A stretch of 64,000 bases of DNA, from contig JAGBAS010000028.1 of assembly GCA_017938885.1 (NCBI GenBank), positions 909-64,908 of the forward strand, given 5' to 3'. This document shows positions 5,687 to 55,472 of this stretch, in pieces. This DNA comes from Clostridia bacterium (GTDB lineage: Bacteria > Bacillota > Clostridia > Oscillospirales > CAG-272). Below the pieces are notes generated by a model, which searched no databases, was not told the origin of the DNA, and was given only the letters and a program-made list of their open reading frames with translations. The position numbers were made by a program, and so were the translations under genes. Position 1 is the first letter of the stretch. Each line of letters begins with the position of its first letter.

Positions 5687-6262
5687 TCAAGGTATCCGAT
5701 CAGACGGGAGGGTATCGTTTTGATATAAATAACAGTCCTTATCGTGTGCATATATCACGCCGATCGCTTGCAGATAGGAATAGATGGTAACCGAACCGAC
5801 GAACGTCATGCCTCTGCTTTTCAGATCTTTTGAAATCGCATCAGACAAGCCGTTGGTTGTCCGATCTGTCTCGTATACGGTTACATCCCGCGTAAAGGTT
5901 CTCAAATAATCGTGAAAAGAACCGAACTCATCGACAATTGTCTTGAAAACCCTGCTGTTTCGAATACTGGCCATGATTTTTTGCTGATTGCGGATGATAT
6001 GCGGATTTCCAAGCAGATCACGCACCTTGTTTTCCTCGTATGAAATGACCTTGTCGATCCGAAAACCATCATATGCTTCCCGGAAGTATTCCCTTTTATT
6101 CAGCACGCATTCCCAGGACAGTCCGGCTTGAAAGCATTCCAGGATCAGCATTTCGTACAAATACGCTTCATCGAAATTCGGTTTGCCCCACTCTTCGTCG
6201 TGATAGGCCACGTATCGGGGGTTTTTCAAATTGCACCATTTGCATCGCTTCTTGCCATCCAT
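5687..6262 (-). CDS. tag: DNA-3-methyladenine glycosylase I
   Basis: KRCKWCNLKNPRYVAYHDEEWGKPNFDEAYLYEMLILECFQAGLSWECVLNKRE matches the Tag signature (Cys/His zinc site, YHD-EWG). The start at MDGKK is chosen by length comparison with E. coli Tag. The gene is visibly AT-richer than its neighbours. Confidence 0.85.
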   Translation of the reverse strand: MDGKKRCKWCNLKNPRYVAYHDEEWGKPNFDEAYLYEMLILECFQAGLSWECVLNKREYFREAYDGFRIDKVISYEENKVRDLLGNPHIIRNQQKIMASIRNSRVFKTIVDEFGSFHDYLRTFTRDVTVYETDRTTNGLSDAISKDLKSRGMTFVGSVTIYSYLQAIGVIYAHDKDCYLYQNDTLPSDRIP

Positions 6263-6409
6263 TTTGGTTTGACCTCGCATCGTTTCAATATGCAACAATT
6301 GCATTATACCATATTTTTTACCAAAAGTAAATAGGGCGGCATCGTTTTACGTTCCGTTTTTGTAGGGCGTTCATTGAGCTCCCGCAGGCGATCAACAGCC
6401 TCCTTCCGC

Positions 6410-6441
6410 AAAACAACAAAGCTCCCACCGTAGTGAGAGCC
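6410..6441 (-). terminator. Rho-independent terminator after rpsI
   Basis: Minus-strand hairpin GCTCTCAC-tacg-GTGGGAGC (6421..6440) followed by a T-rich run, tttgttgttttg. Confidence 0.6.
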
Positions 6442-6460
6442 TTGTGTATACAATATAAAA

Positions 6461-6862
6461 TTATCTCTTGGAGAACTGAGGAGCGCGACGAGCGGCCTTG
6501 AGACCGTACTTCTTTCTCTCCTTCATACGAGGGTCGCGGGTCAGGAAGCCGGCGGCCTTCAGGGCGGGACGGTACTCAGCGTCGGCGGTCAGCAGAGCGC
6601 GGGCGACACCGTGACGGATGGCGCCGGCCTGGCCGGAGATACCGCCGCCGGTGACGTTAGCGACGATGTCGAACTTACCGGTGGTACCGGTAACGCCGAA
6701 GGGCTGATTGACGATGAGCTTCAGGGTCTCGAGACCGAAGTAATCATCGATGGAACGGCCGTTGATGGTGATCTCACCGCTGCCGGGGTACAGGCGAACG
6801 CGGGCGACGGACTTCTTTCTGCGGCCGGTGCCGTAGAAGTAGGGCTTTGCACTGGTATACAT
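6461..6862 (-). CDS. rpsI: 30S ribosomal protein S9
   Basis: [18 protein letters not shown]...[25 protein letters not shown]. The alternative upstream ATG at 6868 has poorer RBS spacing. Confidence 0.95.
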
Positions 6863-6886
6863 ATTCATTGACCTTCCTTTCTTAGA

Positions 6887-7315
6887 TTAGCACTCGTAAG
6901 TCTCGGGCTTCTGAGCCTCGTGCTTATGAGCGGCGCCGGCATAGACCTTCAGACGAGTGAAAGCCTTGCGGCCCAGATGGTTGTGGGGGAGCATACCCTT
7001 GATGGCGAGCTCCATGGCGCGCTCGGGCTTGGTGGCCATCATGGTCTTGGCCTGGACAGCCTTCAGACCGCCAATGTAGCCGGAGTGGCTGTAGTAGTAC
7101 TTCTGCTCCATCTTGCGGCCGGTCAGTACAGCCTTCTCGGCGTTGATGACGATGACGAAGTTACCGCAATCGGCATGGGGGGTGAAGGTGGGATCGTTCT
7201 TACCGCGCAACAGATCTGCAACGGCAACAGCAGTTCTACCCATGGGCTTGTCAGCGGCGTCAACGACGTACCACTTACGGACCACGGTCTCGTTCTTCTG
7301 CATGTAAGTAGACAT
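6887..7315 (-). CDS. rplM: 50S ribosomal protein L13
   Basis: [49 protein letters not shown]... RBS aaaaggagaaagaaacaATG. Confidence 0.95.
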
Positions 7316-7395
7316 TGTTTCTTTCTCCTTTTAGAATCTTCCACGCCGGATCAACCGATGAGCGGCAAATGGGCATGGGTCGTTTTTTACTCACG
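7316..7395 (-). promoter_or_regulatory. rplM 5' leader (possible L13 autoregulatory leader)
   Basis: An ~80-nt untranslated leader lies between the predicted TSS and the rplM RBS. It contains complementary segments cgccg...cggcg. The class assignment rests on position only. Confidence 0.3.
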
Positions 7396-7401
7396 GCGCA
7401 T

Positions 7402-7430
7402 ATTATAACATACTTCACTGTACTTGTCAA
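7402..7430 (-). promoter_or_regulatory. SigA-type promoter of rplM-rpsI
   Basis: On the minus strand: TTGACA (7430..7425), a 17-nt spacer, then TATAAT (7407..7402). Confidence 0.65.
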
Positions 7431-7676
7431 GTACTTTTTGAAAAATTTTTGATTTTTTTAATTTAGGCCTTGTCAATCTCCCGTTTTCTCGCGTTTTTGC
7501 CTGTTTTGCTCCTTCACACTTTCGTGTCATCACATTTTCGGTACAGTTTCCCTTCTCCGTACTTCCCTGCTTTTGTGCAGAATCCACAAGCCCAAGCACG
7601 TCGGGGTCTATCCTCCCCGGGTGCTGCATAGAATGGAGCAGACGGGGCAAGACCCCAAAAGAAAGGATACAAGCCC

Positions 7677-8669
7677 ATGGAATTTTCTGCTGCATATCTG
7701 CCCGAGGGTCAACTCCTCACCACCGCCCGCAACCGCGAATATACCGCCACACTGCAAGGCCTGGAAAAGGCCATGGAGACGGGAGCCATCATCGAAGGAA
7801 CGGTCATCCTCTGCGATGCCAACATGGATCTGCACGTGGACTTTCCTGCTCTTTCGGGGGTACGGGGGATCATCCCCCGCTGCGAGGCGGTATGGAGCCG
7901 CGACGGAGAACCGCCCAAGGACATTGCCATTCTGACCCGTGTGGGAAAGGCTGTGGCCTGCAAGGTGACGGGCGTGGAATACAATGAAGAAACCGGCACG
8001 ACGGTCTATCTGTCCCGCCGTCTCGCTCAGGCCGAATGCGCGGCGAATTACCTGGACGGGCTGTGCCCGGGGGATGTTTTGCGGGCCAAGGTGACTCATC
8101 TGGAGAGCTTCGGTGCCTTCGTGGATCTGGGATGCGGGGTTCCTTCCCTGCTCTCGGTGGACGGCATCTCCATCTCCCGCATCTCCCATCCGCGGGACAG
8201 ACTCTATAACGGTCAGCTCATCTGGTGCGTGGTCAAAAGCATCGACCGTGAGACGGGGCGCATCTTCGTTTCCACGCGGGAGCTGCTGGGCACCTGGGAG
8301 CAGAACGCCGCGCGGTTTACCCCGGGGCAGACCGTAGCGGGGATCGTGCGGAGCGTGGAGGATTACGGAGTCTTTGTGGAGCTGGCTCCCAATCTGGCGG
8401 GGCTGGCTGAGGTGCGGGACTGCGACCGTGAGGCAGTCCACTCCCTCGTGGGGCGGACGGCGGCGGTGTTCATCAAGAGCATCATCCCCGAGCGCATGAA
8501 GGTCAAGCTGGTGCTGATCGATGCCTACAAGGGGGAGCCGGTTCCCCTGCCTCGGCTCCACTACTTCATTCGTGGAGACGAGGTGAGTCACATCGACCGA
8601 TGGGTCTATTCTCCTTCGGGTGCGAAAAAACGGGTGGAAACGGTGTTTGGGGAGAATGAGAAATGCTAA
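7677..8669 (+). CDS. S1 RNA-binding domain protein (about three S1-like repeats)
   Basis: GDVLRAKVTHLESFGAFVDLGCGVPSLL and GQTVAGIVRSVEDYGVFVELAPNLAGLAEV are S1-fold signatures. RBS gaaaggatacaagcccATG. The last codons and the stop lie inside repeat element A. Confidence 0.8.
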   Translation: MEFSAAYLPEGQLLTTARNREYTATLQGLEKAMETGAIIEGTVILCDANMDLHVDFPALSGVRGIIPRCEAVWSRDGEPPKDIAILTRVGKAVACKVTGVEYNEETGTTVYLSRRLAQAECAANYLDGLCPGDVLRAKVTHLESFGAFVDLGCGVPSLLSVDGISISRISHPRDRLYNGQLIWCVVKSIDRETGRIFVSTRELLGTWEQNAARFTPGQTVAGIVRSVEDYGVFVELAPNLAGLAEVRDCDREAVHSLVGRTAAVFIKSIIPERMKVKLVLIDAYKGEPVPLPRLHYFIRGDEVSHIDRWVYSPSGAKKRVETVFGENEKC

Positions 8670-8876: not shown

Positions 8877-11042
8877 TTACTCCGCAGGCTTGATGAGCAT
8901 GATGATGGCGTAGGGTTTTTCGGGCACCGTCACGGGAATGCCGCTCTCCATGAGGGTCTTTCCGTTGGCGGTGACGTCCACCAGGCCGTCGAAGTCGGTG
9001 ATACGATACGACTTTTCGGGGTCAAGTCCCTTGAGCTTGACCGTGGTGGACAGGCTCTTGGTATCCTGGTGGCAGAACACCGAGGCGTAGCCCGAGGACG
9101 TGGCGGGATCGTAGAATTCCCAGGCATTCCAGCGGTCGCGGTCGGCTGTCCATTCCACGAGGGGGTAGTAGTCGGCGTAGAAGTAATCGCGGATCTGCTC
9201 GAATTCGGCATAGCCCTGCTTATTGAGCGTCCAGTCTGCGTTCTTATCCAGAACGGGGCCGAAGTTCATGAGAGACAGGGGGGCGTAGTTCATACGCACC
9301 TTGTACATATTGTCGGTATCATAGATCTCATTCTTGAAGTAGGGGAACCAGGCAAAGAGGCTCTGGGTCTTACGGCCCTTCATGTCGTAGTCCTCGTGGT
9401 TCCCGTCGAACCAGTCGGTATAATGGAGGGGAACGCCCCGCTTCATGGTCTCCAGGTCGTTGCGGCCTCCGCCCGAGGCGCAGGAATCCATGTAGATGCC
9501 GGGATATCGCTCGATCAGCTTATCCCACAGGGATAGGTATCCTTGGACGTAGAGATTCTCGGTCATACCCTTGCGGTCGGGGTACTTCCAATCCATGGCG
9601 GCCCAGGAGGAGGCCGGATCGCAGTTGAAGTCTGAGCGGAAGCCCGTAGCGCCTGCATCGTCGATGACCTTACAGATCTTATGGAAGACCCACTCCACGC
9701 ACTCGGGATCGGTGAGATTCATGATATATCCCTCCAGCCAGGAGCCCTGCATGGCCTTGGGCAGGAACCATTCCTCCTTGAAGCCCTCTTGTCCGGCCAG
9801 GAATGCATCCTTGTCCAAGCGGATACTCTCGGGCTCAAACCAGATCATCATGCGCATATCGTGATCCTTACAGAACTGGCCGATATTCGCCATGCGGTCA
9901 GGGAAGCGGTTGGTATCCATATCCATGGAGCCTGTCTGAGGCCAGGAAACCGATTCGCCGTTGGCACCGAAGTACCAGCCGGCATCCAGCCACAAAAACT
10001 CGGGCTCCACACCTGCGTCGTAGTAGGAGTTGAGGATGGTCAGAAGGCGGTTCGTGGTATTGCCGGTACAGCCCTGGCTGACGCCCGTATAGATGGGGTA
10101 CAGCTCGCCGTCGATCTTACGCAAAACGTCGTTGATGAAATAATGCCGCCAGGCGTTGGTCTGCTCATCCGGAGTCATCTCCTCGTAGTCCACGAAGCCC
10201 ATCAGGGGGGTTCGGATGGTCTCACCGGGCTCCAGATAGGTATTCAGAACGTTCTGGCCCGCCTCCAGCGTGGTGATCTTTCGGGACTTGGAGTAATTGA
10301 AGCGCGCTGCCCAGTTTCCCGGCCAGCCAATGGCGATGAAGGTACCGCCGTTCCCGTAGGAAAGGTTATAGTAAGGGAACACGCCATGGGAGGGGCGGCC
10401 TGTGGTACAGACGTCGCTGTATCGGGATCGTTGACTCAGGTCGTGGACATAGGGGTCGTAATTCTTGCCCTGCGCATCTCCCTTGATACCGCTGATGACG
10501 GGGTCTGCGCCCTCGAATTGCAGATTGAACCAGAGCCGGGTGAACTTACCCGTATTGGTTTCTCCATCGTTTGTAATGTAGACCACGTACTCGTATGCGG
10601 TCTCTGCGGGGTATACGGTGGCCTCCAGGCAAAACAGCGCGGGGATCTCGGGATGGCGGAGGTTCATCGTGGTCTTGATGCCGCGCTCGATTTCCTCGTG
10701 GGTTTCAGATTCCAGGGTGAAGCCTGCAAAGCCCGCGTATTCCTTGTCGTCGTATTCAAAGGAAATGGGAAAATGGTCCAGATCCGACAGTGCGGCGTCG
10801 TAGCGGGGAACCGAGAAGGTCGGATCGGGCAGGAAGGGCTCGGTTTCGGCCTCGGCGGTCTCTTCCTCCGAGGGGACTTCGGTCAGGGTTTCGTCAGGAG
10901 CCTCGGTATCCGTGTCGGCGGGGGCATTGGTATCCGTGTCGGCGGTAGGCTGATCTCCCACGCAGGCGGTGAAGCCCGCCCCGAAAAGACAGAGGAGCAG
11001 AAAGGACGTAAGCGCAGTAAACAGCAGTTTATTCGGTTTCAT
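8877..11042 (-). CDS. Surface lipoprotein, GH36-like (clan-D alpha-galactosidase-like) glycoside hydrolase, paralogue 1
   Basis: Lipobox LLLCLFGAGFTAC followed by an acidic T/D/E/P linker. Catalytic-region motifs are LWLDAGWY, FRSDFNCD and DSCASGGGRND (a C-x-SGGGR-type GH36 signature). RBS aaaggagatcttcATG. Confidence 0.75.
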   Translation of the reverse strand: MKPNKLLFTALTSFLLLCLFGAGFTACVGDQPTADTDTNAPADTDTEAPDETLTEVPSEEETAEAETEPFLPDPTFSVPRYDAALSDLDHFPISFEYDDKEYAGFAGFTLESETHEEIERGIKTTMNLRHPEIPALFCLEATVYPAETAYEYVVYITNDGETNTGKFTRLWFNLQFEGADPVISGIKGDAQGKNYDPYVHDLSQRSRYSDVCTTGRPSHGVFPYYNLSYGNGGTFIAIGWPGNWAARFNYSKSRKITTLEAGQNVLNTYLEPGETIRTPLMGFVDYEEMTPDEQTNAWRHYFINDVLRKIDGELYPIYTGVSQGCTGNTTNRLLTILNSYYDAGVEPEFLWLDAGWYFGANGESVSWPQTGSMDMDTNRFPDRMANIGQFCKDHDMRMMIWFEPESIRLDKDAFLAGQEGFKEEWFLPKAMQGSWLEGYIMNLTDPECVEWVFHKICKVIDDAGATGFRSDFNCDPASSWAAMDWKYPDRKGMTENLYVQGYLSLWDKLIERYPGIYMDSCASGGGRNDLETMKRGVPLHYTDWFDGNHEDYDMKGRKTQSLFAWFPYFKNEIYDTDNMYKVRMNYAPLSLMNFGPVLDKNADWTLNKQGYAEFEQIRDYFYADYYPLVEWTADRDRWNAWEFYDPATSSGYASVFCHQDTKSLSTTVKLKGLDPEKSYRITDFDGLVDVTANGKTLMESGIPVTVPEKPYAIIMLIKPAE

Positions 11043-11071: not shown

Positions 11072-13213
11072 TTACTTGGCTTCCCGGATGAGGAGGATCA
11101 CGGCGTAAGGCTGCTCGGGCACCGTAACTGTGATGCCCTGCTCCATGAGCTGAGCACCGTCGGCGGTGATCTCCACCAGACCGTCAAAATCCTTGATATG
11201 ATACTGCTTTTCGGGGTCAAGTCCCTTCAGGCACACCGTATTTGTCTTGGAGTTCGCCGCCTGCTGGCAGGCGATGAAGGCAAATCCCTCTCCGCTTTCG
11301 GGGACGTAGAACATACGGGCATCCCAGCGGTTGGCGTTGTTACTCCACTCGGTGAGGGCGTAGAAGTCACCGTAGAAATAGTCGCGGATGAGGTCGTACT
11401 CGGCGTAGGCCTGCCGCATGAGAGCCCAGTCGTTGTCCTTGTTGAGGGCACTGGGGAGCTTGAGGAGGCAGAAGGGGGCGTAGTTCATGCGAAGCTTATA
11501 AAGGCTGATCTGGTAGGATTCGTTCTTGAAGTAGGGGAACCAGGCAAAGAGAGCCTGGGTCATCTTGCCCTTCATGTCGTAATCCTCGTTGTTGCCGTCG
11601 AACCAGTCGGTGTAGTGGAGGGGGACGCCGCGCTTCATGGATTCCAGGTCGTTGCGGCCGCCGCCCGAGGCGCAGGAGTCGATGAAAATGCCGTACTTCT
11701 CGATGATGGCATCCCACAGAGCCAGGTAGCCCTGGACGTACTGATTCTCGGTCATGCCCTTCCGTCCCGACGTCTTACGGTCGTTTTCCTCCCAGGCAGG
11801 AGCGGGATCGTTGTTGAAGTCCTGGCGATAGCCGGTGGCTCCCGTGGTGTCTATAACCTTACAGATCTTGTTGAATATCCACTCACGGCACTCGGGGTTG
11901 CCCAGATCCATCAGAAGCCCCTCCAGGAACCCGCCGGGCTTGCCCAGTAGCCATTCCTCCTTGAAGTCGGGCTGACCGGCCAGGAAGGCGGCCTTATCCA
12001 GACGCATATTCTCGGGCTCAAACCAGAGCAGATACATGGCGTTGGTCTTTTTGGCGTAATCACCGATGTCCGCCATACCGTCGGGGAAGCGGTTATAGTC
12101 GATATCCAGCGATCCCGTAGACGTCCAGGGCACCGATTCACCGTTTGCGCCCGTATACCAGCCTGCGTCCATCCAGATCACGTCGGGGGTGACGCCGTTT
12201 GCGCGGTAGGCTTGGAGCATGAGCAGCTCCTTCTTGGTGGTCATGCCCGCCGACATATTGCCGATCCCTCGGTAGGTGGGCGTCAGCTCGCCGTCGATCT
12301 TGCGCATGACGTCGTGGATGTAGTAATGCCGCCAGGCGTTGGTCTGCTCGTCGGGTGTCAGTCCCTCATACTCCACAAAGCCCATAAGGGGGGTGCGGAG
12401 GGTCTCGCCGGGCGCTATGTAGGTCGCGACGTTGCCCTGCCCCGTGCGGAGGGTCGTGATCTTTTCACTCTTTTTATAGGTAAACTGGGCGTACCAGGTC
12501 CCCGGCCAACCGATGGCTATGAAGGTGCCGCCGTCTCCGTAGGAGAGATTGTAGTAGGGGAACGTGCCGTGGGAGGGTCGTCCCGAGGTGGAGGTATCGC
12601 TGTATCGGGAGCGGCCTGTCAGATCGTGCTCATAGGGGGTATAGTTCTGGCCGCCCGCATCGCCCTTGATACCGCTGATGAGGGGGTCATCGCCCACAAA
12701 GGAAATATCGAAGGAGAGGTCGGAGAAAATCTCGGTGTTCTCTTGCCCGTCGTTGACGATGTAGACCACGTACTCATAGGCGGACTCCTGCGGGTAGACG
12801 GTGGCCTCCAGGCGGAAGGCGGCGGGAATCTCGGGATGGCGGAAGATCCGGGTGGTCTTCACGCCGCGATCCACGTCCTCATAATGCTCAGACTCCAGAG
12901 CAAAGCCCGCAAAGCCGTTATACTCGGTCTTTCCGTACTTGAAGTACAGGGGGAAGGTATCGGGGTTGCTCATCAGCTCGTCGTACCTGGGCACGGCGCG
13001 CTCGGGATCGGGGGGGAAAGGCTCCGTCTCGGGCTCAGCGATGGTCGTTTCATCGGTCATGGTGGTGTCCTCCTCGGCAGGCTCTTGGGTTTCCGACGGG
13101 GAAGCCGTCGTCTCGGGAGTAGGATCGGGGGTGTCGGTACAGGCCGCCATCCCACCCATAAGGCACAGGAGCAAAAGCCCTGCGGTCAACAGAAACAGGT
13201 ATGATCTGCGCAT
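11072..13213 (-). CDS. Surface lipoprotein, GH36-like glycoside hydrolase, paralogue 2 (tandem duplicate)
   Basis: Lipobox LCLMGGMAAC plus an acidic linker. It is colinear with paralogue 1 over the full length, and by eye well over half the residues are identical. It carries the same IWMDAGWY, YRQDFNND and DSCASGGGRND motifs. Confidence 0.75.
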   Translation of the reverse strand: MRRSYLFLLTAGLLLLCLMGGMAACTDTPDPTPETTASPSETQEPAEEDTTMTDETTIAEPETEPFPPDPERAVPRYDELMSNPDTFPLYFKYGKTEYNGFAGFALESEHYEDVDRGVKTTRIFRHPEIPAAFRLEATVYPQESAYEYVVYIVNDGQENTEIFSDLSFDISFVGDDPLISGIKGDAGGQNYTPYEHDLTGRSRYSDTSTSGRPSHGTFPYYNLSYGDGGTFIAIGWPGTWYAQFTYKKSEKITTLRTGQGNVATYIAPGETLRTPLMGFVEYEGLTPDEQTNAWRHYYIHDVMRKIDGELTPTYRGIGNMSAGMTTKKELLMLQAYRANGVTPDVIWMDAGWYTGANGESVPWTSTGSLDIDYNRFPDGMADIGDYAKKTNAMYLLWFEPENMRLDKAAFLAGQPDFKEEWLLGKPGGFLEGLLMDLGNPECREWIFNKICKVIDTTGATGYRQDFNNDPAPAWEENDRKTSGRKGMTENQYVQGYLALWDAIIEKYGIFIDSCASGGGRNDLESMKRGVPLHYTDWFDGNNEDYDMKGKMTQALFAWFPYFKNESYQISLYKLRMNYAPFCLLKLPSALNKDNDWALMRQAYAEYDLIRDYFYGDFYALTEWSNNANRWDARMFYVPESGEGFAFIACQQAANSKTNTVCLKGLDPEKQYHIKDFDGLVEITADGAQLMEQGITVTVPEQPYAVILLIREAK

Positions 13214-13215
13214 GG

Positions 13216-14625
13216 TTAGTCCTCCTTCTTCTTACTCAGCATGGGGATCGCCACCAAAGCCGCCGCCGCGCAGCCGGGCAAAAGCACCGCGCCGCAGCCC
13301 TTCTTGACGGCTTCGGTTTCGGTGGAGGGCTCGGAGACGGCGGTATTCTCGGGCTCAGCAGGAGCCCGGGTCCCCTCCTCGGTGACGGGATCGGTGACCG
13401 GTTCGGTAGAGGGTTCGGTTTCGGGTTCGGTTTCGGGCTCGGTTTCGGGTTCGGTAGAGGGCTCGGTAGAGGGCTCGGTTTCGGGCGGGGTGATGATCTC
13501 ATCAAAGGACAGATCCGAGAAGAGCATATCCTCGGTGATGCTTCCGCTCTTGGAGATCACCGCGCCGCCGTAGGTTCCCCACGCGCCGCTGATACCGGGT
13601 GCGCCCGCCACGGCAAGGCGGAGGATCTTGACCCCCGTGATATCGCACTCCATGGGCTTCATGTCCTCGCCAAACGTCATGGTGCCGCTCTCCCAGAGCT
13701 TGACACCGTCGCCGAATACGGCGAATTTGATCTTGGCCATGGAAATATCGTGGGAGGTCAGGGTCTCGCAGACGCCGTAGTAGGCGGCCAGCTTGGTAAA
13801 GCCCAGGCCCTCGACGTTGACATCCACGTAGGCGTCGTAGCTCCCCGACACGGCGTGGAAGCCAACTCCCTTACGGAAGAACTTACCGTCGTTTGAGATG
13901 ATGATCTCGTTGGCGGTGTTGCAGTCGCGGCCCACCACGTTTCCCGTGTAGGTCGCGTTATCCAGCCAGTAGAGATCACTGACGTAGGCATAGTCGCCGC
14001 TGACCAGCTCGGCGGGCTGGAGCTTATCGGTTTTATCGGGATTAAACACGGGCGTGACCTCCACTTTATCATCTGCCATGGGTTCCTCGTTCATCAGTCG
14101 GGCATTGCCCCACACGCCCGCGTCGCAGGCGTGGCCGTTCTCGTTCTTCTGCACCAGGCGCAGGGTCTTGACCCCCTCCACCGAGCAGGACAGGAAGTAG
14201 GGCTCGTCTCCCCATACCCGCATGGGCGTGGAGGCGAGAAGCTTGCCATCCCCGTAAACGTGGAAGGAGATGCTTCCCCACTCGATGAAATAGCCTGCCT
14301 CCTTGAGAACCCCCACCGAGGCGGCGAAATATTTCAGGCCAAGCGAGGAGATATCGAATTCACAGTAAGCATCCTTATCGGGGAGGCAATGGAAGCCCAG
14401 ACCCTTGTCAAAGCGTTGAGAGCCGATGGTGATGGGCTCGCCCGAATGGGCGGTGTTCCAGCCAAAGCCGTCCAGACTGTCGCGCCCGAGGAACAGATCC
14501 TCCCGATCGCCGAGGTAGACGGTGTCCTCTGCGGCGGACGCAGGAAAGGCGGCTGACAGGGACATCCCCGACATCATCAGAAGGGCAAGTGCCAGAGTGA
14601 GGATGCGAAAATGCTTGATTTTCAT
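13216..14625 (-). CDS. Non-catalytic surface glycan-binding protein: signal peptide, two NPCBM-like modules, TEP-repeat stalk, C-terminal KKGC membrane anchor
   Basis: Sec signal peptide ...SLSAAFPASA/AED. There are two repeats of the NPCBM-type pattern (YLGD...GWNTAHSGEPITIGSQRFDKGLGFH and YVSDLYWLDNATYTGNVVGRDCNTANEIIISNDGKFFRKGVGFHA). The C-terminus reads TEPSTEPSTEPETEPETEPETEPSTEP...KKGCGAVLLPGCAAAALVAIPMLSKKKED. Confidence 0.75.
   Translation of the reverse strand: MKIKHFRILTLALALLMMSGMSLSAAFPASAAEDTVYLGDREDLFLGRDSLDGFGWNTAHSGEPITIGSQRFDKGLGFHCLPDKDAYCEFDISSLGLKYFAASVGVLKEAGYFIEWGSISFHVYGDGKLLASTPMRVWGDEPYFLSCSVEGVKTLRLVQKNENGHACDAGVWGNARLMNEEPMADDKVEVTPVFNPDKTDKLQPAELVSGDYAYVSDLYWLDNATYTGNVVGRDCNTANEIIISNDGKFFRKGVGFHAVSGSYDAYVDVNVEGLGFTKLAAYYGVCETLTSHDISMAKIKFAVFGDGVKLWESGTMTFGEDMKPMECDITGVKILRLAVAGAPGISGAWGTYGGAVISKSGSITEDMLFSDLSFDEIITPPETEPSTEPSTEPETEPETEPETEPSTEPVTDPVTEEGTRAPAEPENTAVSEPSTETEAVKKGCGAVLLPGCAAAALVAIPMLSKKKED
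13398..13489 (-). repeat. In-frame 12-nt tandem repeat encoding the (T-E-P-S/E)n stalk
   Basis: Units of ACCGAGCCCTCT / ACCGAACCCGAA are repeated about 7 times on the coding strand. Confidence 0.8.
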
Positions 14626-52343: not shown

Positions 52344-55300
52344 TCATTCCTTTCCCTTATACAGAGCAACGGAGGCGGCGGCAGCAGCCAGGATCATCGT
52401 AGCCGACAGAACGGCAGACTGACAGCCCTTCTTCTCACCCGTAGGCTCGGACGCGGACTCGTCGGGGGCCTCGGTAGCGGGGGTGTCGGTGACAGGCTCG
52501 GCAGGAGCCGTTTCCTCGGCGGTGGTTTCCTCGGTCTGCCCGGACAGCCCGCTGTTTTCGGGGGTAGAGATATAGGAGAACTTGAAGCGGCCGCCGGGAG
52601 CTACATCGCCCGAGGTATAGAAGTCCAGAATATCGCCCGAGAAGGTTGCGTAGACGGTGGTATTGCCCTCGCCCTCGCCCTTGTCAGCCACGTCGTGGAC
52701 GTTATCCGTCCAGGCGAAGTTGACGGTGTAGGTCTCGCCTTGAATACCCAGAGCCGATTTGGGGATCTTGACCGTCATGTAGCGGCCGTCCACCTTGTAT
52801 TCCACGTCGGCCACCTTTTCAGAGGTGTAGCCGTCGGTGAACTTCTCCAGAACGGCGGCAGTCTCGGTGGGGGCGGTCTTGTTGACCACGAAGTCAAAGC
52901 TGTTCCAGCCAGCGTTATTGGCATCCACATCAATGTAGAGGTTCATCCAAAGCTTGTCGGTATAGGGAGTGATGTTCTCGGCGCACTCCACAAGGAACCA
53001 GAGGTTCTCGCTGTCGCGGGCGATCTGGGCGCCAATGATGTCGTTTCGGCCGGAATAGTCCTTGTACTCGATGCCGCCGTAGCCCAGGGCGTCGCGGTCA
53101 CCCGTGTTGCCGATGTAGGCGGCGTAGTAAGGCTCTACGGTCTGCCATTGATCGTAGCCTGCGGTCAAATCGATGGTGGCGGACTTGGAGGGAGTGGGGA
53201 TGGGATTCGCGCCCTTATAGCGGCGGACGTAGTTGACCAGCTGGTAGTAGTAGTGGTCGGCCAGGTCGCCTCGGGAGGGCTCCAGGTCGCGGGAGAACTC
53301 GTTGTTGAACTGGTCGGGGAAGGCGTTCTCCACCACCGAGTTGCCCCCATTGGGCCACGACGCATAGCGGCTGGCGCACCACTCGTTCCAGCCCGTGATG
53401 AAGATCATCTTGGGATCCTGCTCGATGGCAAACTCGAACTGCTCGGAGAAGTTGTAACCCCACTTGGAGGCCTCGTCGCCCTCCTTGTCGTAACGGTCGC
53501 GGTAATTCTTGGTATAGGAGCGGCCCATGATGTTGTGTCCGCTCATGGCGGCCAGCTCCTGGTTGACATAGTTGGCGTTCTGGGCCACGCCTACGGTGAT
53601 CTGCTCCACGATCTTTTCCTTGCGCTCCTCGGCGTTTGCGAAATAGCGCGCCTGCTGATAGGTGGAGAGCCAACCCCATTCGCCATAGTTGCCGGACTTA
53701 GTGAAGTAGGAGGCAACGGGGGCGCGGAAGCTGAAGAACTCGGCGATCTGCTTGTCGATGGCCTCATTTTTCAGGCTGTTGACACCGTGGGCCATGATGA
53801 GGGGCTTGCCCTCCCAGTAGAACCACAGGGGACGGTACTTGCCGTCGTGATAGATGTTGGTGTACATCTCCAGGAGCTGAACGCGGGTGTCGTTCCCGGC
53901 TCCAAAGGGCATCAGATTACTGATTTTTGGGGTCTCCACGCCGTCCTGCATGGCTTTCGTCCACGTTTCATATATGACGGGGTAGGCATCACCCCAGGTC
54001 AGGGTGGCGTTGGAATTGTCTGTGAAAATGACGTCCACGCCTGCGGCGGTAAGCAGCTCGGCCTGCTTGCGGATGACCCAGGCGTCGTCCGAGCGGTAGT
54101 AGCCGTAGATGGGCTCGTCCCAGAAATACTGAACCGAATTGTCCTTGGCCAGCCAGCCCGCATGGTCGTAGTCGTAGAGGTAATCCTCCAGAGGAATACC
54201 TGCGGCGGTCTGCTCGTCGATGTACTTCTGGACGTTAAAGGGGGTGCGGATCTTACCGAAGGTGGCGTGCCAGTTCCAGAAGAACATGGCCACATTCTTG
54301 CCGTCGCGGGGGTCACCCACCTCGGCATTGGTCAGGGAGACCCGACCCAGACCGTCGGTGAAGACCCAGGTATCGGGCATGACGGTTGCGGCGGGATAGC
54401 GGCTGGCGGCGGGCAGCTTATAGTCCGCGAGGTCCTTTTGGGATTCGGTAATTTCTTCAAACACGGGTGTTTCCTCCAGATTTGCGCTGATACTGCCCAG
54501 AGGGGTGGAGGTGGAGCCGAAATACTGCACCTCACAGCGGGCGGCGTTGGGGATTGCCACGCCGTTCTGGTAATTGCGGATAGTCTCGGGGGCACTCGGA
54601 GAGGTCCAGACACCCACCTGCTCGGCGGCATCCTCCGAGATGTTGGTCATGAGCAGGACGTACTCGCCCAGAGGCATATTCTCGGCGAATTCCAACTTGA
54701 GGGTGGCGTTGTCGTTGAAGTCAATGAAGTCCTGGGAGGCCAGAGCCTCACCTGCCACGGTCTTGTCGTAGTTCTCGTTCCACTTGAACAGCTCGAAGCG
54801 GAGAGAGCCCTTATTGTTGTTGTAGCTGGGACAGCCCACGGCGATGTAGCTCCACGGCACCGTCATGTTGAACTGGATGGCGTAGGTCTGACTGATTTTC
54901 ACGGGGGTACTGCTGTCGGCGTTACAGAGAGAGGTCTTGCTACCCTCGGCTACGATGTCCTCCCCTGCCGGCGCGAACTTGATGGCGTAGACGTTGGGGC
55001 CGTCGGTGTGGAATACAATGGTGATCTCATGCTCGCCCTCGGGCAGTTCTACCGTGGCGGGGGTAGTATCCAGCCAGCTCCGCCATCCCGCGCCCCCCAC
55101 CTGGTTGACGATCTTGGAGGCCTCGGTGCCGTCGATCATGAGGGTGAAGGTACCGTGACCCGCACCGGAGGCCCAGCCCGTGACCATGCCCCAGCTGTAG
55201 GTGCCGCCCTTGGCGACGTTCACACGGAAGGTGAGGCTATCGCCCTTGCGGACGCGGTCGAAGTAGGGCTCGCCCAAAGTCGTTTCCAGGTAGATGGTCT

Positions 55301-55472
55301 CGCCTACGGGTGCGATCTTCTCATAGGCATCGGCCAGAACGATACGGGTCGTACCCGAAGCCTTGATAGCGGTTGGTTCCTTGGCGGCCATGACCGGCAT
55401 GGCAGGCAGGAGCGAGAGCAGCATAACGGCTGTCATAATCAATGTTACAAAACGAATAGTCGGTTTCTTCAT
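52344..55472 (-). CDS. Secreted CBM-containing putative glycoside hydrolase with a C-terminal KKGC membrane anchor
   Basis: Sec signal ...LPAMPVMA/AKE. The N-terminal module is CBM6/35-like (GDSLTFRVNVAKGGTYSW...EGEHEITIVFHTDGPNVYAIKFAP). A central TIM-barrel-like region follows (FFWNWHATFG..., VDVIFTDNSN). An acidic T/E/A/P stalk then leads to ...GEKKGCQSAVLSATMILAAAAASVALYKGKE. Confidence 0.7.
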   Translation of the reverse strand: MKKPTIRFVTLIMTAVMLLSLLPAMPVMAAKEPTAIKASGTTRIVLADAYEKIAPVGETIYLETTLGEPYFDRVRKGDSLTFRVNVAKGGTYSWGMVTGWASGAGHGTFTLMIDGTEASKIVNQVGGAGWRSWLDTTPATVELPEGEHEITIVFHTDGPNVYAIKFAPAGEDIVAEGSKTSLCNADSSTPVKISQTYAIQFNMTVPWSYIAVGCPSYNNNKGSLRFELFKWNENYDKTVAGEALASQDFIDFNDNATLKLEFAENMPLGEYVLLMTNISEDAAEQVGVWTSPSAPETIRNYQNGVAIPNAARCEVQYFGSTSTPLGSISANLEETPVFEEITESQKDLADYKLPAASRYPAATVMPDTWVFTDGLGRVSLTNAEVGDPRDGKNVAMFFWNWHATFGKIRTPFNVQKYIDEQTAAGIPLEDYLYDYDHAGWLAKDNSVQYFWDEPIYGYYRSDDAWVIRKQAELLTAAGVDVIFTDNSNATLTWGDAYPVIYETWTKAMQDGVETPKISNLMPFGAGNDTRVQLLEMYTNIYHDGKYRPLWFYWEGKPLIMAHGVNSLKNEAIDKQIAEFFSFRAPVASYFTKSGNYGEWGWLSTYQQARYFANAEERKEKIVEQITVGVAQNANYVNQELAAMSGHNIMGRSYTKNYRDRYDKEGDEASKWGYNFSEQFEFAIEQDPKMIFITGWNEWCASRYASWPNGGNSVVENAFPDQFNNEFSRDLEPSRGDLADHYYYQLVNYVRRYKGANPIPTPSKSATIDLTAGYDQWQTVEPYYAAYIGNTGDRDALGYGGIEYKDYSGRNDIIGAQIARDSENLWFLVECAENITPYTDKLWMNLYIDVDANNAGWNSFDFVVNKTAPTETAAVLEKFTDGYTSEKVADVEYKVDGRYMTVKIPKSALGIQGETYTVNFAWTDNVHDVADKGEGEGNTTVYATFSGDILDFYTSGDVAPGGRFKFSYISTPENSGLSGQTEETTAEETAPAEPVTDTPATEAPDESASEPTGEKKGCQSAVLSATMILAAAAASVALYKGKE

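Follow-up and report, generated by a model that had tools for sequence, protein, structure and literature searches.

The stretch of DNA considered here, called the window throughout, comprises 64,000 nucleotides of a Clostridia bacterium (assembly GCA_017938885.1, contig JAGBAS010000028.1, positions 909 to 64,908) and corresponds to contig C137 of the genome designated G000, whose assembly, 95% complete, has a length of 3.03 Mb, a G+C content of 57% and 145 contigs. Two secreted proteins encoded in the window, termed A and B, have different Pfam domains and end in the same kind of C-terminal tail, in which a Gly-Cys pair is followed by a hydrophobic segment and a short basic end. This tail is a candidate sorting signal, and its family, an intramembrane protease that accompanies it and a homologue of the lipid transferase Lgt that may act together with them are the subject of this text.

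Two tailed proteins of the window

The two genes and the parts of their products that matter here are as follows:

13216..14625, minus strand: gene of protein A, an NPCBM protein of 469 aa, secreted; an open reading frame (ORF) that carries the Gly-Cys tail
13306..13470, minus strand: acidic Thr/Glu/Pro-rich linker of protein A, residues 386-440
13219..13305, minus strand: C-terminal candidate sorting tail of protein A, KKGCGAVLLPGCAAAALVAIPMLSKKKED, recognised from the ORF end and a hidden Markov model (HMM) of the tail
13294-13299, 13234-13293 and 13219-13233, minus strand: Gly-Cys, hydrophobic segment and basic end of the protein A tail
52344..55472, minus strand: gene of protein B, a CBM6/CBM35 protein of 1042 aa, secreted; an ORF that encodes the second putative substrate in the window
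52434..52538, minus strand: Thr/Glu/Pro/Ala-rich linker of protein B, residues 979-1013
52347..52433, minus strand: C-terminal candidate sorting tail of protein B, KKGCQSAVLSATMILAAAAASVALYKGKE, recognised from the ORF end and the tail HMM
52422-52427, 52359-52421 and 52347-52358, minus strand: Gly-Cys, hydrophobic segment and basic end of the protein B tail

Protein A contains two matches to PF08305 (NPCBM; E = 5.8e-44 in Pfam) and finishes with ...TEAVKKGCGAVLLPGCAAAALVAIPMLSKKKED, and protein B contains Pfam matches to CBM_6 and CBM_35 and finishes with ...PTGEKKGCQSAVLSATMILAAAAASVALYKGKE. Each has a Sec-type signal peptide and, ahead of the tail, a linker rich in Thr, Glu, Pro and Ala, and the acidic linker of protein A is probably a stalk across the cell wall. 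The tail HMM gives 25.7 bits for protein A and 28.5 bits for protein B, although the latter was absent from its seed. A preliminary description of this DNA had reported the two tails at these positions, as well as Sec signal peptides and Thr/Glu/Pro stalks on both proteins, and all of these features are present as it described them.

Directly downstream of the protein A gene, a tandem pair of paralogous GH36-type alpha-galactosidases (Melibiase plus GH36 C-terminal domain) is encoded on the minus strand at 8877-11042 and 11072-13213, and both enzymes have ordinary N-terminal lipoboxes (…GFTAC and …GMAAC). With this pair beside the Gly-Cys-tailed protein A, a single glycan locus thus mixes N-terminal lipoprotein anchors with a C-terminal tail.

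The Gly-Cys tail family

The two tails are part of a large family. A six-frame scan of G000 found Gly-Cys followed by about 20 uncharged residues and a basic end in 53-55 large ORFs, as compared with 0.15 on average for shuffled tails, and a strict form of the pattern occurred 32 times at C-termini versus four times internally. The tail HMM recovered 54 ORFs (about 2% of the proteome) at 21-48 bits, all of them with Gly-Cys and all at the C-terminus, clear of a background whose next C-terminal score was 5.3 bits and whose best internal score was 16.3 bits. By a crude rule, at least 46 of the 54 proteins have a Sec-type signal peptide, and once tail and linker are set aside the 54 members fall into 21 unrelated passenger clusters; the passengers sampled include NPCBM, CBM6/35, ConA-like and CBM9-like modules, together with several proteins that have no Pfam match. 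Across the family, the 40 residues preceding Gly-Cys are composed largely of T (19%), E (18%), P (15%), A (12%) and D (10%).

A tail-like sequence of G000, SIVGVTCAGMILSGGVALSLRKRKN, scores 16.3 bits and opens a stop-to-stop frame on the minus strand of contig C62 (17565-18014) instead of forming a C-terminus; a tail-bearing gene that underwent a frameshift may have left it behind.

The generic layout of motif, hydrophobic helix and C-terminal basic cluster is found in all 54 tails. In the alignments the motif reads G-C-x-[SGA]-x-[LVIMF], where Gly at -1 and Cys at 0 are the sole invariant residues, a small or basic residue follows at +1, and all 54 tails have one of S, G and A at +2 and one of L, V, I, M and F at +4. 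The Cys and the basic cluster are separated by 18-23 uncharged residues (median 21), and the basic end has about five residues with a K:R ratio of 2:1. Pro occurs anywhere in the helix of 13/54 tails, a second Cys in 15/54, and KKGC in 9/54. Read from the helix toward the Cys, the motif loosely mirrors the N-terminal lipobox of the same genome (L/F, A/T/V, A/S/G, C).

The Gly-Cys tail is also conserved in homologues of the window proteins, being kept in 106/120 for protein A and 112/120 for protein B, and it is retained down to about 43-50% identity while the remaining tail sequence varies freely. Since Gly at -1, Cys at 0 and positions +2 and +4 are fixed and the rest drifts, selection appears to act on the motif and not on a mere anchor. 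Thirteen homologues of protein A (P0186-P0198) have a Cys-less transmembrane helix with a basic end at the position of the tail, a natural swap on one passenger which indicates that the anchor module is exchangeable.

These results bear on several points of the preliminary description. It had regarded KKGC as the conserved element, and on this point it has to be corrected, as so few of the 54 tails contain KKGC and the invariant part is Gly-Cys. Its invariant Cys at the membrane interface agrees with the alignments, and its view of the tails as a tripartite C-terminal sorting domain gains support from the number of C-terminal tails, their distance from the background and the diversity of their passengers. 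The proteome scan that it recommended thus yielded a family of 54 members on 21 passenger clusters, and neither of the outcomes that it named as adverse, a motif limited to two proteins and a motif not conserved in orthologues, was found.

The models of NCBIfam release 20 and Pfam were searched with proteins A and B at full length, with their tails alone and with 40 tails of the family. Neither window tail gave a match, even at E <= 10, and the 40 family tails gave weak matches to numerous sorting-domain models whose common element is the helix with its basic end, among them the LPXTG-anchor models, which matched just these parts. The best specific model was Synerg-CTERM (TIGR04564), with weak matches to 8/40 tails; when ten tails were scored singly against its cut-off of 22.5 bits, one passed at 24.9 bits and four other matches lay at 11.8-15.3 bits. 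As for MYXO-CTERM, TIGR03382 matched 5/40 tails (best E = 0.035), and the 25 families listed for these tails did not include TIGR03901. A curated sorting-domain family was rejected as the identity of the tails because the scans gave weak generic helix-plus-basic matches alone, and we class the tail as a variant related to the known Cys-type signals, outside the named families. The NCBIfam comparison suggested in the preliminary description therefore left both window tails without a match at cut-off, the marginal pass of one single tail against Synerg-CTERM being the exception. Its remark that LPXTG is lacking holds as well, as the motif survey found no LPXTG-type motif in the tails.

The search for known processing enzymes in the 95% complete G000 found no sortase (PF04203), rhomboid or exosortase, and these were rejected for that reason as the enzyme acting on the tails. 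No secretin was found in G000 either, which implies that there is no channel of a type II secretion system (T2SS). The ordinary lipoprotein pathway is present, with a canonical Lgt on contig C59, LspA and about 130 lipobox-like N-termini. Literature searches found no publication on such a tail system in Clostridia.

The CPBP protease and its Lgt-like neighbour

Three genes of contig C37 in G000, arranged in the order substrate, Lgt-like, CPBP, are of particular relevance:

C37:17473-19068, minus strand: tail-bearing gene beside the gene pair
C37:16443-17336, minus strand: divergent Lgt-like gene (PF01790, 97.9 bits versus a cut-off of 24.9)
C37:15581-16450, minus strand: CPBP/Rce1-type protease gene (PF02517, 62.7 bits versus a cut-off of 22.4)

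The tail and the C37-type CPBP occur in the same genomes. All 18 genomes examined from the same genus have the tail, in 3-63 copies each, and a profile search found none in 12 other families of the order; the marginal match of genome G030 (E = 0.009) was rejected as a member, being a sequence without Gly-Cys. A class-wide draw of 300 genomes was searched with a profile trained on the genus and later with a broader one. Beyond G000, the genus-trained profile was positive in G174 alone, a genome of a different family, and with the broader profile the matches that cover Gly-Cys were confined to G000, G174 and G251, eight other genomes having one or two weak matches to the helix part only. Strong matches to the C37-type CPBP were found in the same draw in G000 (733 bits), G174 (290 bits) and G251 (137 bits), and the next score was <= 55 bits. 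The orthologue of G174 has 50% identity, and four tail-less genomes of the order have none. G251, tail-negative by the genus-trained profile, was predicted to be positive from its CPBP alone, and it has clear Gly-Cys tails on four giant ORFs. Tail and protease hence coincide in 3/3 genomes belonging to three families, and neither was found in the roughly 297 others. Fifty further GTDB genomes were chosen for holding a relative of the C37 CPBP, and at a threshold of E <= 0.001 tails were found in 40 of them, including every one with at least 44% CPBP identity; two actinobacterial outliers, at 29% CPBP identity, had no tail match.

It is likely that the tail is a genuine sorting signal and that the C37-type CPBP recognises it. 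The phylogenetic profiling proposed in the preliminary description did lead to a cognate enzyme, but one of the CPBP/Rce1 type and not the sortase, rhombosortase or archaeosortase that had been envisaged.

The C37 protease is one of four CPBP/Rce1-like genes in G000. Its EExxFR and FxxxH motifs and a third His, which answer to the EExxxR, FxxxH and HxxxN/D of CPBP proteases, correspond to E151, E152, R156, F185, H189 and H233, which are invariant in 31 orthologues. Its AlphaFold2 model, a confident one (AF2; predicted local distance difference test score 91.6), shows eight long helices, and the catalytic motifs are embedded in helical segments. A profile of the protein had no sequence match in the PDB. 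Against the Mrt models, whose cut-offs are 75-195 bits, it scores 18-30 bits, the best named relatives being MrtJ, Mrt_core and MrtC. For NF040914 (myxosortase core, cut-off 100 bits) the scores are 18.4 bits for the C37 protein and 23.9 bits for the G251 orthologue, and for NF040589 (MrtS, cut-off 130 bits) the C37 protein has no match and the CPBP of contig C63 reaches 26.4 bits.

The other three CPBP paralogues of G000 (C63, C84 and C97) do not follow the tail. Those of C84 and C97 were dismissed as partners after being found in 2/8 and 0/8 tail-positive genomes, and that of C63 because it has no orthologue beyond the genus and its weak matches, in 101/300 genomes, are unrelated to the tail. 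The C63 CPBP (C63:1931-2974, plus strand) abuts on its downstream side, with no gap, a tail-bearing gene (C63:2975-5176, plus strand), a position that had made it seem the natural partner, and it may be a lineage-specific accessory protease.

The C37 CPBP is coupled to its Lgt-like neighbour. The stop of the Lgt-like gene and the start of the CPBP gene overlap by 8 nt (cATGAATAAt), with a GGAGAG ribosome-binding site upstream. Among 70 CPBP loci of GTDB genomes, which come from uncultured gut and rumen Clostridia and a few metagenome-assembled genomes (MAGs) of Acholeplasmataceae and Izemoplasma, 49 have a C37-type Lgt homologue that ends at the CPBP start on the same strand, and at 10 loci a homologous tail-bearing gene stands directly upstream of the pair. 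Tails were found in 31/33 of the pair-bearing genomes searched, and beyond local synteny no third conserved neighbour of the pair was found.

Three Lgt homologues are encoded in G000, namely the canonical one on C59 (246 bits), one on C32 (141 bits) and the C37 protein (98 bits), the last of which scores 74.6 bits against TIGR00544, under the equivalog cut-off of 118.9. Aligned to E. coli Lgt (PDB 5azb), the C37 protein keeps Y26, R143, G154, Y235, R239 and E243. The residues N146 and E151 (E. coli numbering) are both replaced by Cys, in 49/49 and 50/50 of the CPBP-adjacent Lgt homologues. In the Lgt tree, the canonical proteins form one clade (100/100), and a further group of paralogues, the B type, is its sister.

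Some other observations concern Lgt and the gene pair. The B-type paralogue is widespread, as seen in G000 itself (C32:18670-19383, minus strand), at loci L047-L051 and in tail-negative Clostridia too. The sole Lgt of the tail-positive G251 is of the Cys/Cys type, and this genome has no canonical one. In an Oscillospiraceae MAG (CP091718.1; locus L072, 5870-7847, plus strand), the Lgt-like frame (5870-7438) and the CPBP match (7001-7847) share about 440 nt, which a fusion of the genes, an extended overlap or a frameshift could explain. The pair is also present in wall-less Mycoplasmatota-like MAGs of Acholeplasmataceae and Izemoplasma (loci L090, L095 and L114), which have 0-1 tail matches and whose substrates may carry a divergent tail.

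Proposed pathway, alternatives and comparison with known systems

The reading that we favour, with moderate confidence, sees in the tail a C-terminal sorting signal, tripartite and of the cysteine type, which in monoderm gut Clostridia undergoes lipidation by an Lgt-family enzyme and then cleavage by the CPBP; it would be a Gram-positive counterpart to MYXO-CTERM and myxosortase. A tail protein would be exported by Sec and at first be anchored in the membrane by its C-terminal helix, so oriented that the basic end faces the cytoplasm and Gly-Cys lies on the outer side. An Lgt-family transferase, for which the divergent C37 paralogue (C37:16443-17336) is the candidate in G000 and most related lineages, would then put a diacylglycerol-type lipid on the Cys thiol, and the CPBP/Rce1-type intramembrane glutamic protease (C37:15581-16450) would cut just after the Cys. 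The helix would be discarded, and the protein would stay on the surface, its long acidic stalk ending in a lipidated C-terminal Cys that holds it there. From the genes and motifs described above we infer that lipidation occurs, where the cut lies and in which sequence the steps follow; that an Lgt-family enzyme lipidates the Cys first seems slightly more probable than its opposite. The chances are about even that monoderms have, in this form, a mirror image of the lipoprotein pathway, where an Lgt paralogue S-lipidates a Cys placed before a C-terminal helix of N-out/C-in topology and the CPBP takes the role of LspA.

Several observations weigh against lipidation followed by cleavage. A single three-gene operon on C37 is ruled out by a terminator-like hairpin and a promoter-like site between the substrate gene and the pair. 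The double replacement N146C/E151C was rejected as a signature of the system since B-type paralogues of tail-negative genomes have both. Asn146 is reported to be essential in E. coli Lgt, and its replacement by Cys makes the catalytic competence of the Lgt-like protein uncertain. In the Lgt tree, the 46 CPBP-adjacent proteins of Clostridia stand apart with weak basal support (63/97). The tail-positive G174 and G251 have the CPBP with no adjacent Lgt, and an extra Lgt copy was discarded as a marker of tail-positive genomes, as there is a single Lgt in G251 but two or three in tail-negative genomes. The association with Lgt, strong as it is, thus does not hold everywhere. On the side of the protease, the best Foldseek match of the CPBP model in the PDB had E = 0.34, and an Rce1 structure was not recovered. 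No tail match came from ten of the 50 CPBP-chosen genomes, whose CPBP relatives are distant, and two of these ten, both Acholeplasmataceae MAGs, have the gene pair; the tail profile was trained on few lineages and may thus miss divergent tails. Related genomes are not independent, and the strong claim of co-occurrence is that made for the three families of the random sample together with the CPBP-chosen set.

Other explanations make different use of the Cys and of the two enzymes. The CPBP could remove the helix without any lipidation, with shedding of the protein to the medium or the wall, or the Cys could receive a modification not made by Lgt, the Lgt-like protein having another job. This appears unlikely. 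In its favour, every lineage tested shows the CPBP going with the tail, whereas G174 and G251 lack the dedicated Lgt-like gene, and in the Lgt-like protein the Asn and Glu of canonical Lgt are exchanged for Cys (positions 146 and 151). The translational coupling of Lgt and CPBP at 49/70 loci, at deep divergence, is nevertheless hard to account for without lipidation. Moreover, Rce1-type enzymes characteristically act on a lipidated Cys (PMC11980579), and a long wall-spanning stalk fits a retained protein, not a released one. No proteolysis at all would take place if the tail were a simple anchor, making these type I membrane proteins in which Gly-Cys is structural or reversibly acylated. The 13 protein A homologues with a Cys-less helix and a basic end indicate that a plain anchor can suffice; nevertheless, such an anchor needs no invariant Gly-Cys with a small +2 and a hydrophobic +4 residue across 54 proteins, and it would not co-occur with one intramembrane protease subfamily in three or more families, so that we judge this explanation improbable.

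It is also conceivable, with very low probability, that the system is an ordinary member of Synerg-CTERM/MrtS or MYXO-CTERM/myxosortase that the models score poorly. What could be read in this way is the weak matching of TIGR04564 to 8/40 tails, with one of ten single tails passing (24.9 versus 22.5 bits), and the fact that the best named relatives of the CPBP are MrtJ, Mrt_core and MrtC. The window tails, however, are unmatched at E <= 10 and the CPBP stays at 18-30 bits versus Mrt cut-offs of 75-195; the tails have no invariant helix Pro (13/54) and no fixed second Cys, their basic end is Lys-biased and not Arg-rich, G000 has no secretin, and a Clostridia host is not mentioned by Haft (10.1101/2023.06.07.544157). 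A layout like that of LPXTG proteins and the weak LPXTG-anchor matches to the helix and basic part would suit a covalent attachment to the wall or S-layer through the Cys by a transpeptidase-like enzyme, that is, a sortase-like outcome without a sortase. We regard this as highly unlikely, as no sortase or exosortase was found in G000 and neither of the enzymes that co-occur with the tail is a transpeptidase, one being an intramembrane protease of the glutamic type and the other a homologue of a lipid transferase.

In uncultured gut and rumen Clostridia that lack sortase, the tail appears to fix dozens of carbohydrate-binding and carbohydrate-degrading proteins on the surface, by a system that is invisible to annotation, given that the tails have no NCBIfam or Pfam name, the protease is labelled as a generic "CPBP" and the transferase as a plain Lgt. 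If lipidation and cleavage take place as proposed, about 2% of the proteome, mostly glycan-binding or glycan-degrading surface proteins, would be anchored by a lipidated C-terminus, and a lipid transferase class would be named for all Cys-type signals (MYXO-, JDVT-, Synerg- and CGP-CTERM). A rule to predict surface-exposed proteins of gut Clostridia and a portable C-terminal lipid-anchoring tag would also follow.

The known Cys-type signals are MYXO-, JDVT-, Synerg- and CGP-CTERM, with MrtX/C/P, MrtJ, MrtS and MrtA as their cognate CPBP proteases; Haft describes all four systems from diderm bacteria or archaea and makes no mention of Firmicutes or Clostridia (10.1101/2023.06.07.544157). MrtX cleaves MYXO-CTERM in a Cys-dependent manner, also in E. 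coli, and prior lipidation by an "Lgt-like" enzyme, not yet identified, was predicted for it (mBio 2025, PMC11980579). The coupling of Lgt and CPBP at 49/70 loci turns this guess into a testable two-gene hypothesis. With MYXO-CTERM/MrtX of Myxococcota (TIGR03901/TIGR03382, NF040914), the Clostridia tails share the tripartite signal in which an invariant Cys stands where the helix reaches the outer face, the dozens of unrelated exported substrates per genome, a cognate CPBP/Rce1-type glutamic intramembrane protease and the predicted two-step route of Cys lipidation and then cleavage. On the other hand, the Clostridia host is monoderm and has no secretin/T2SS step, GCGC is replaced by a single fixed Cys in G-C-x-[SGA]-x-hydrophobic with a Lys-biased basic end, the MYXO-CTERM models do not match, and the protease is usually translationally coupled to a dedicated Lgt paralogue. 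Synerg-CTERM/MrtS of Synergistales (TIGR04564, NF040589) resembles the tails in its Gly-rich cluster and single invariant Cys that lead straight into the helix, but it has an invariant Pro in a Leu-rich helix, as compared with Pro in 13/54 tails here, and it is tied to a divergent T2SS (10.1101/2023.06.07.544157), of which there is none here, and the C37 CPBP does not match MrtS.

The N-terminal lipoprotein pathway (Lgt and LspA; lipobox L-[AS]-[GA]-C) also has a Cys at the outer face beside small residues, a hydrophobic helix and a basic cytoplasmic end, and in both systems an Lgt-family enzyme is genetically linked and an intramembrane protease would remove the helix after lipidation. The topology is mirrored in the Clostridia system, however, with the Cys before a C-terminal helix, a CPBP in place of LspA and an Lgt paralogue that lies below the equivalog cut-off and carries N146C/E151C. 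In the eukaryotic and archaeal CAAX system, a prenyltransferase acts before Rce1 (or MmRce1), so that a C-terminal Cys is lipidated by a separate enzyme and a homologous CPBP-family protease cuts after it, as is proposed here; unlike in CAAX processing, about 25 residues with a membrane helix would be removed here instead of three, the substrate is extracytoplasmic, and the enzyme donating the lipid would be Lgt-like and not a prenyltransferase. Finally, the LPXTG/sortase system has the same overall protein layout and role in surface display, a role that the Gly-Cys tails appear to fill in a sortase-less genome; there is neither an LPXTG motif nor a sortase gene here, and the predicted product would be lipid-anchored instead of wall-linked.

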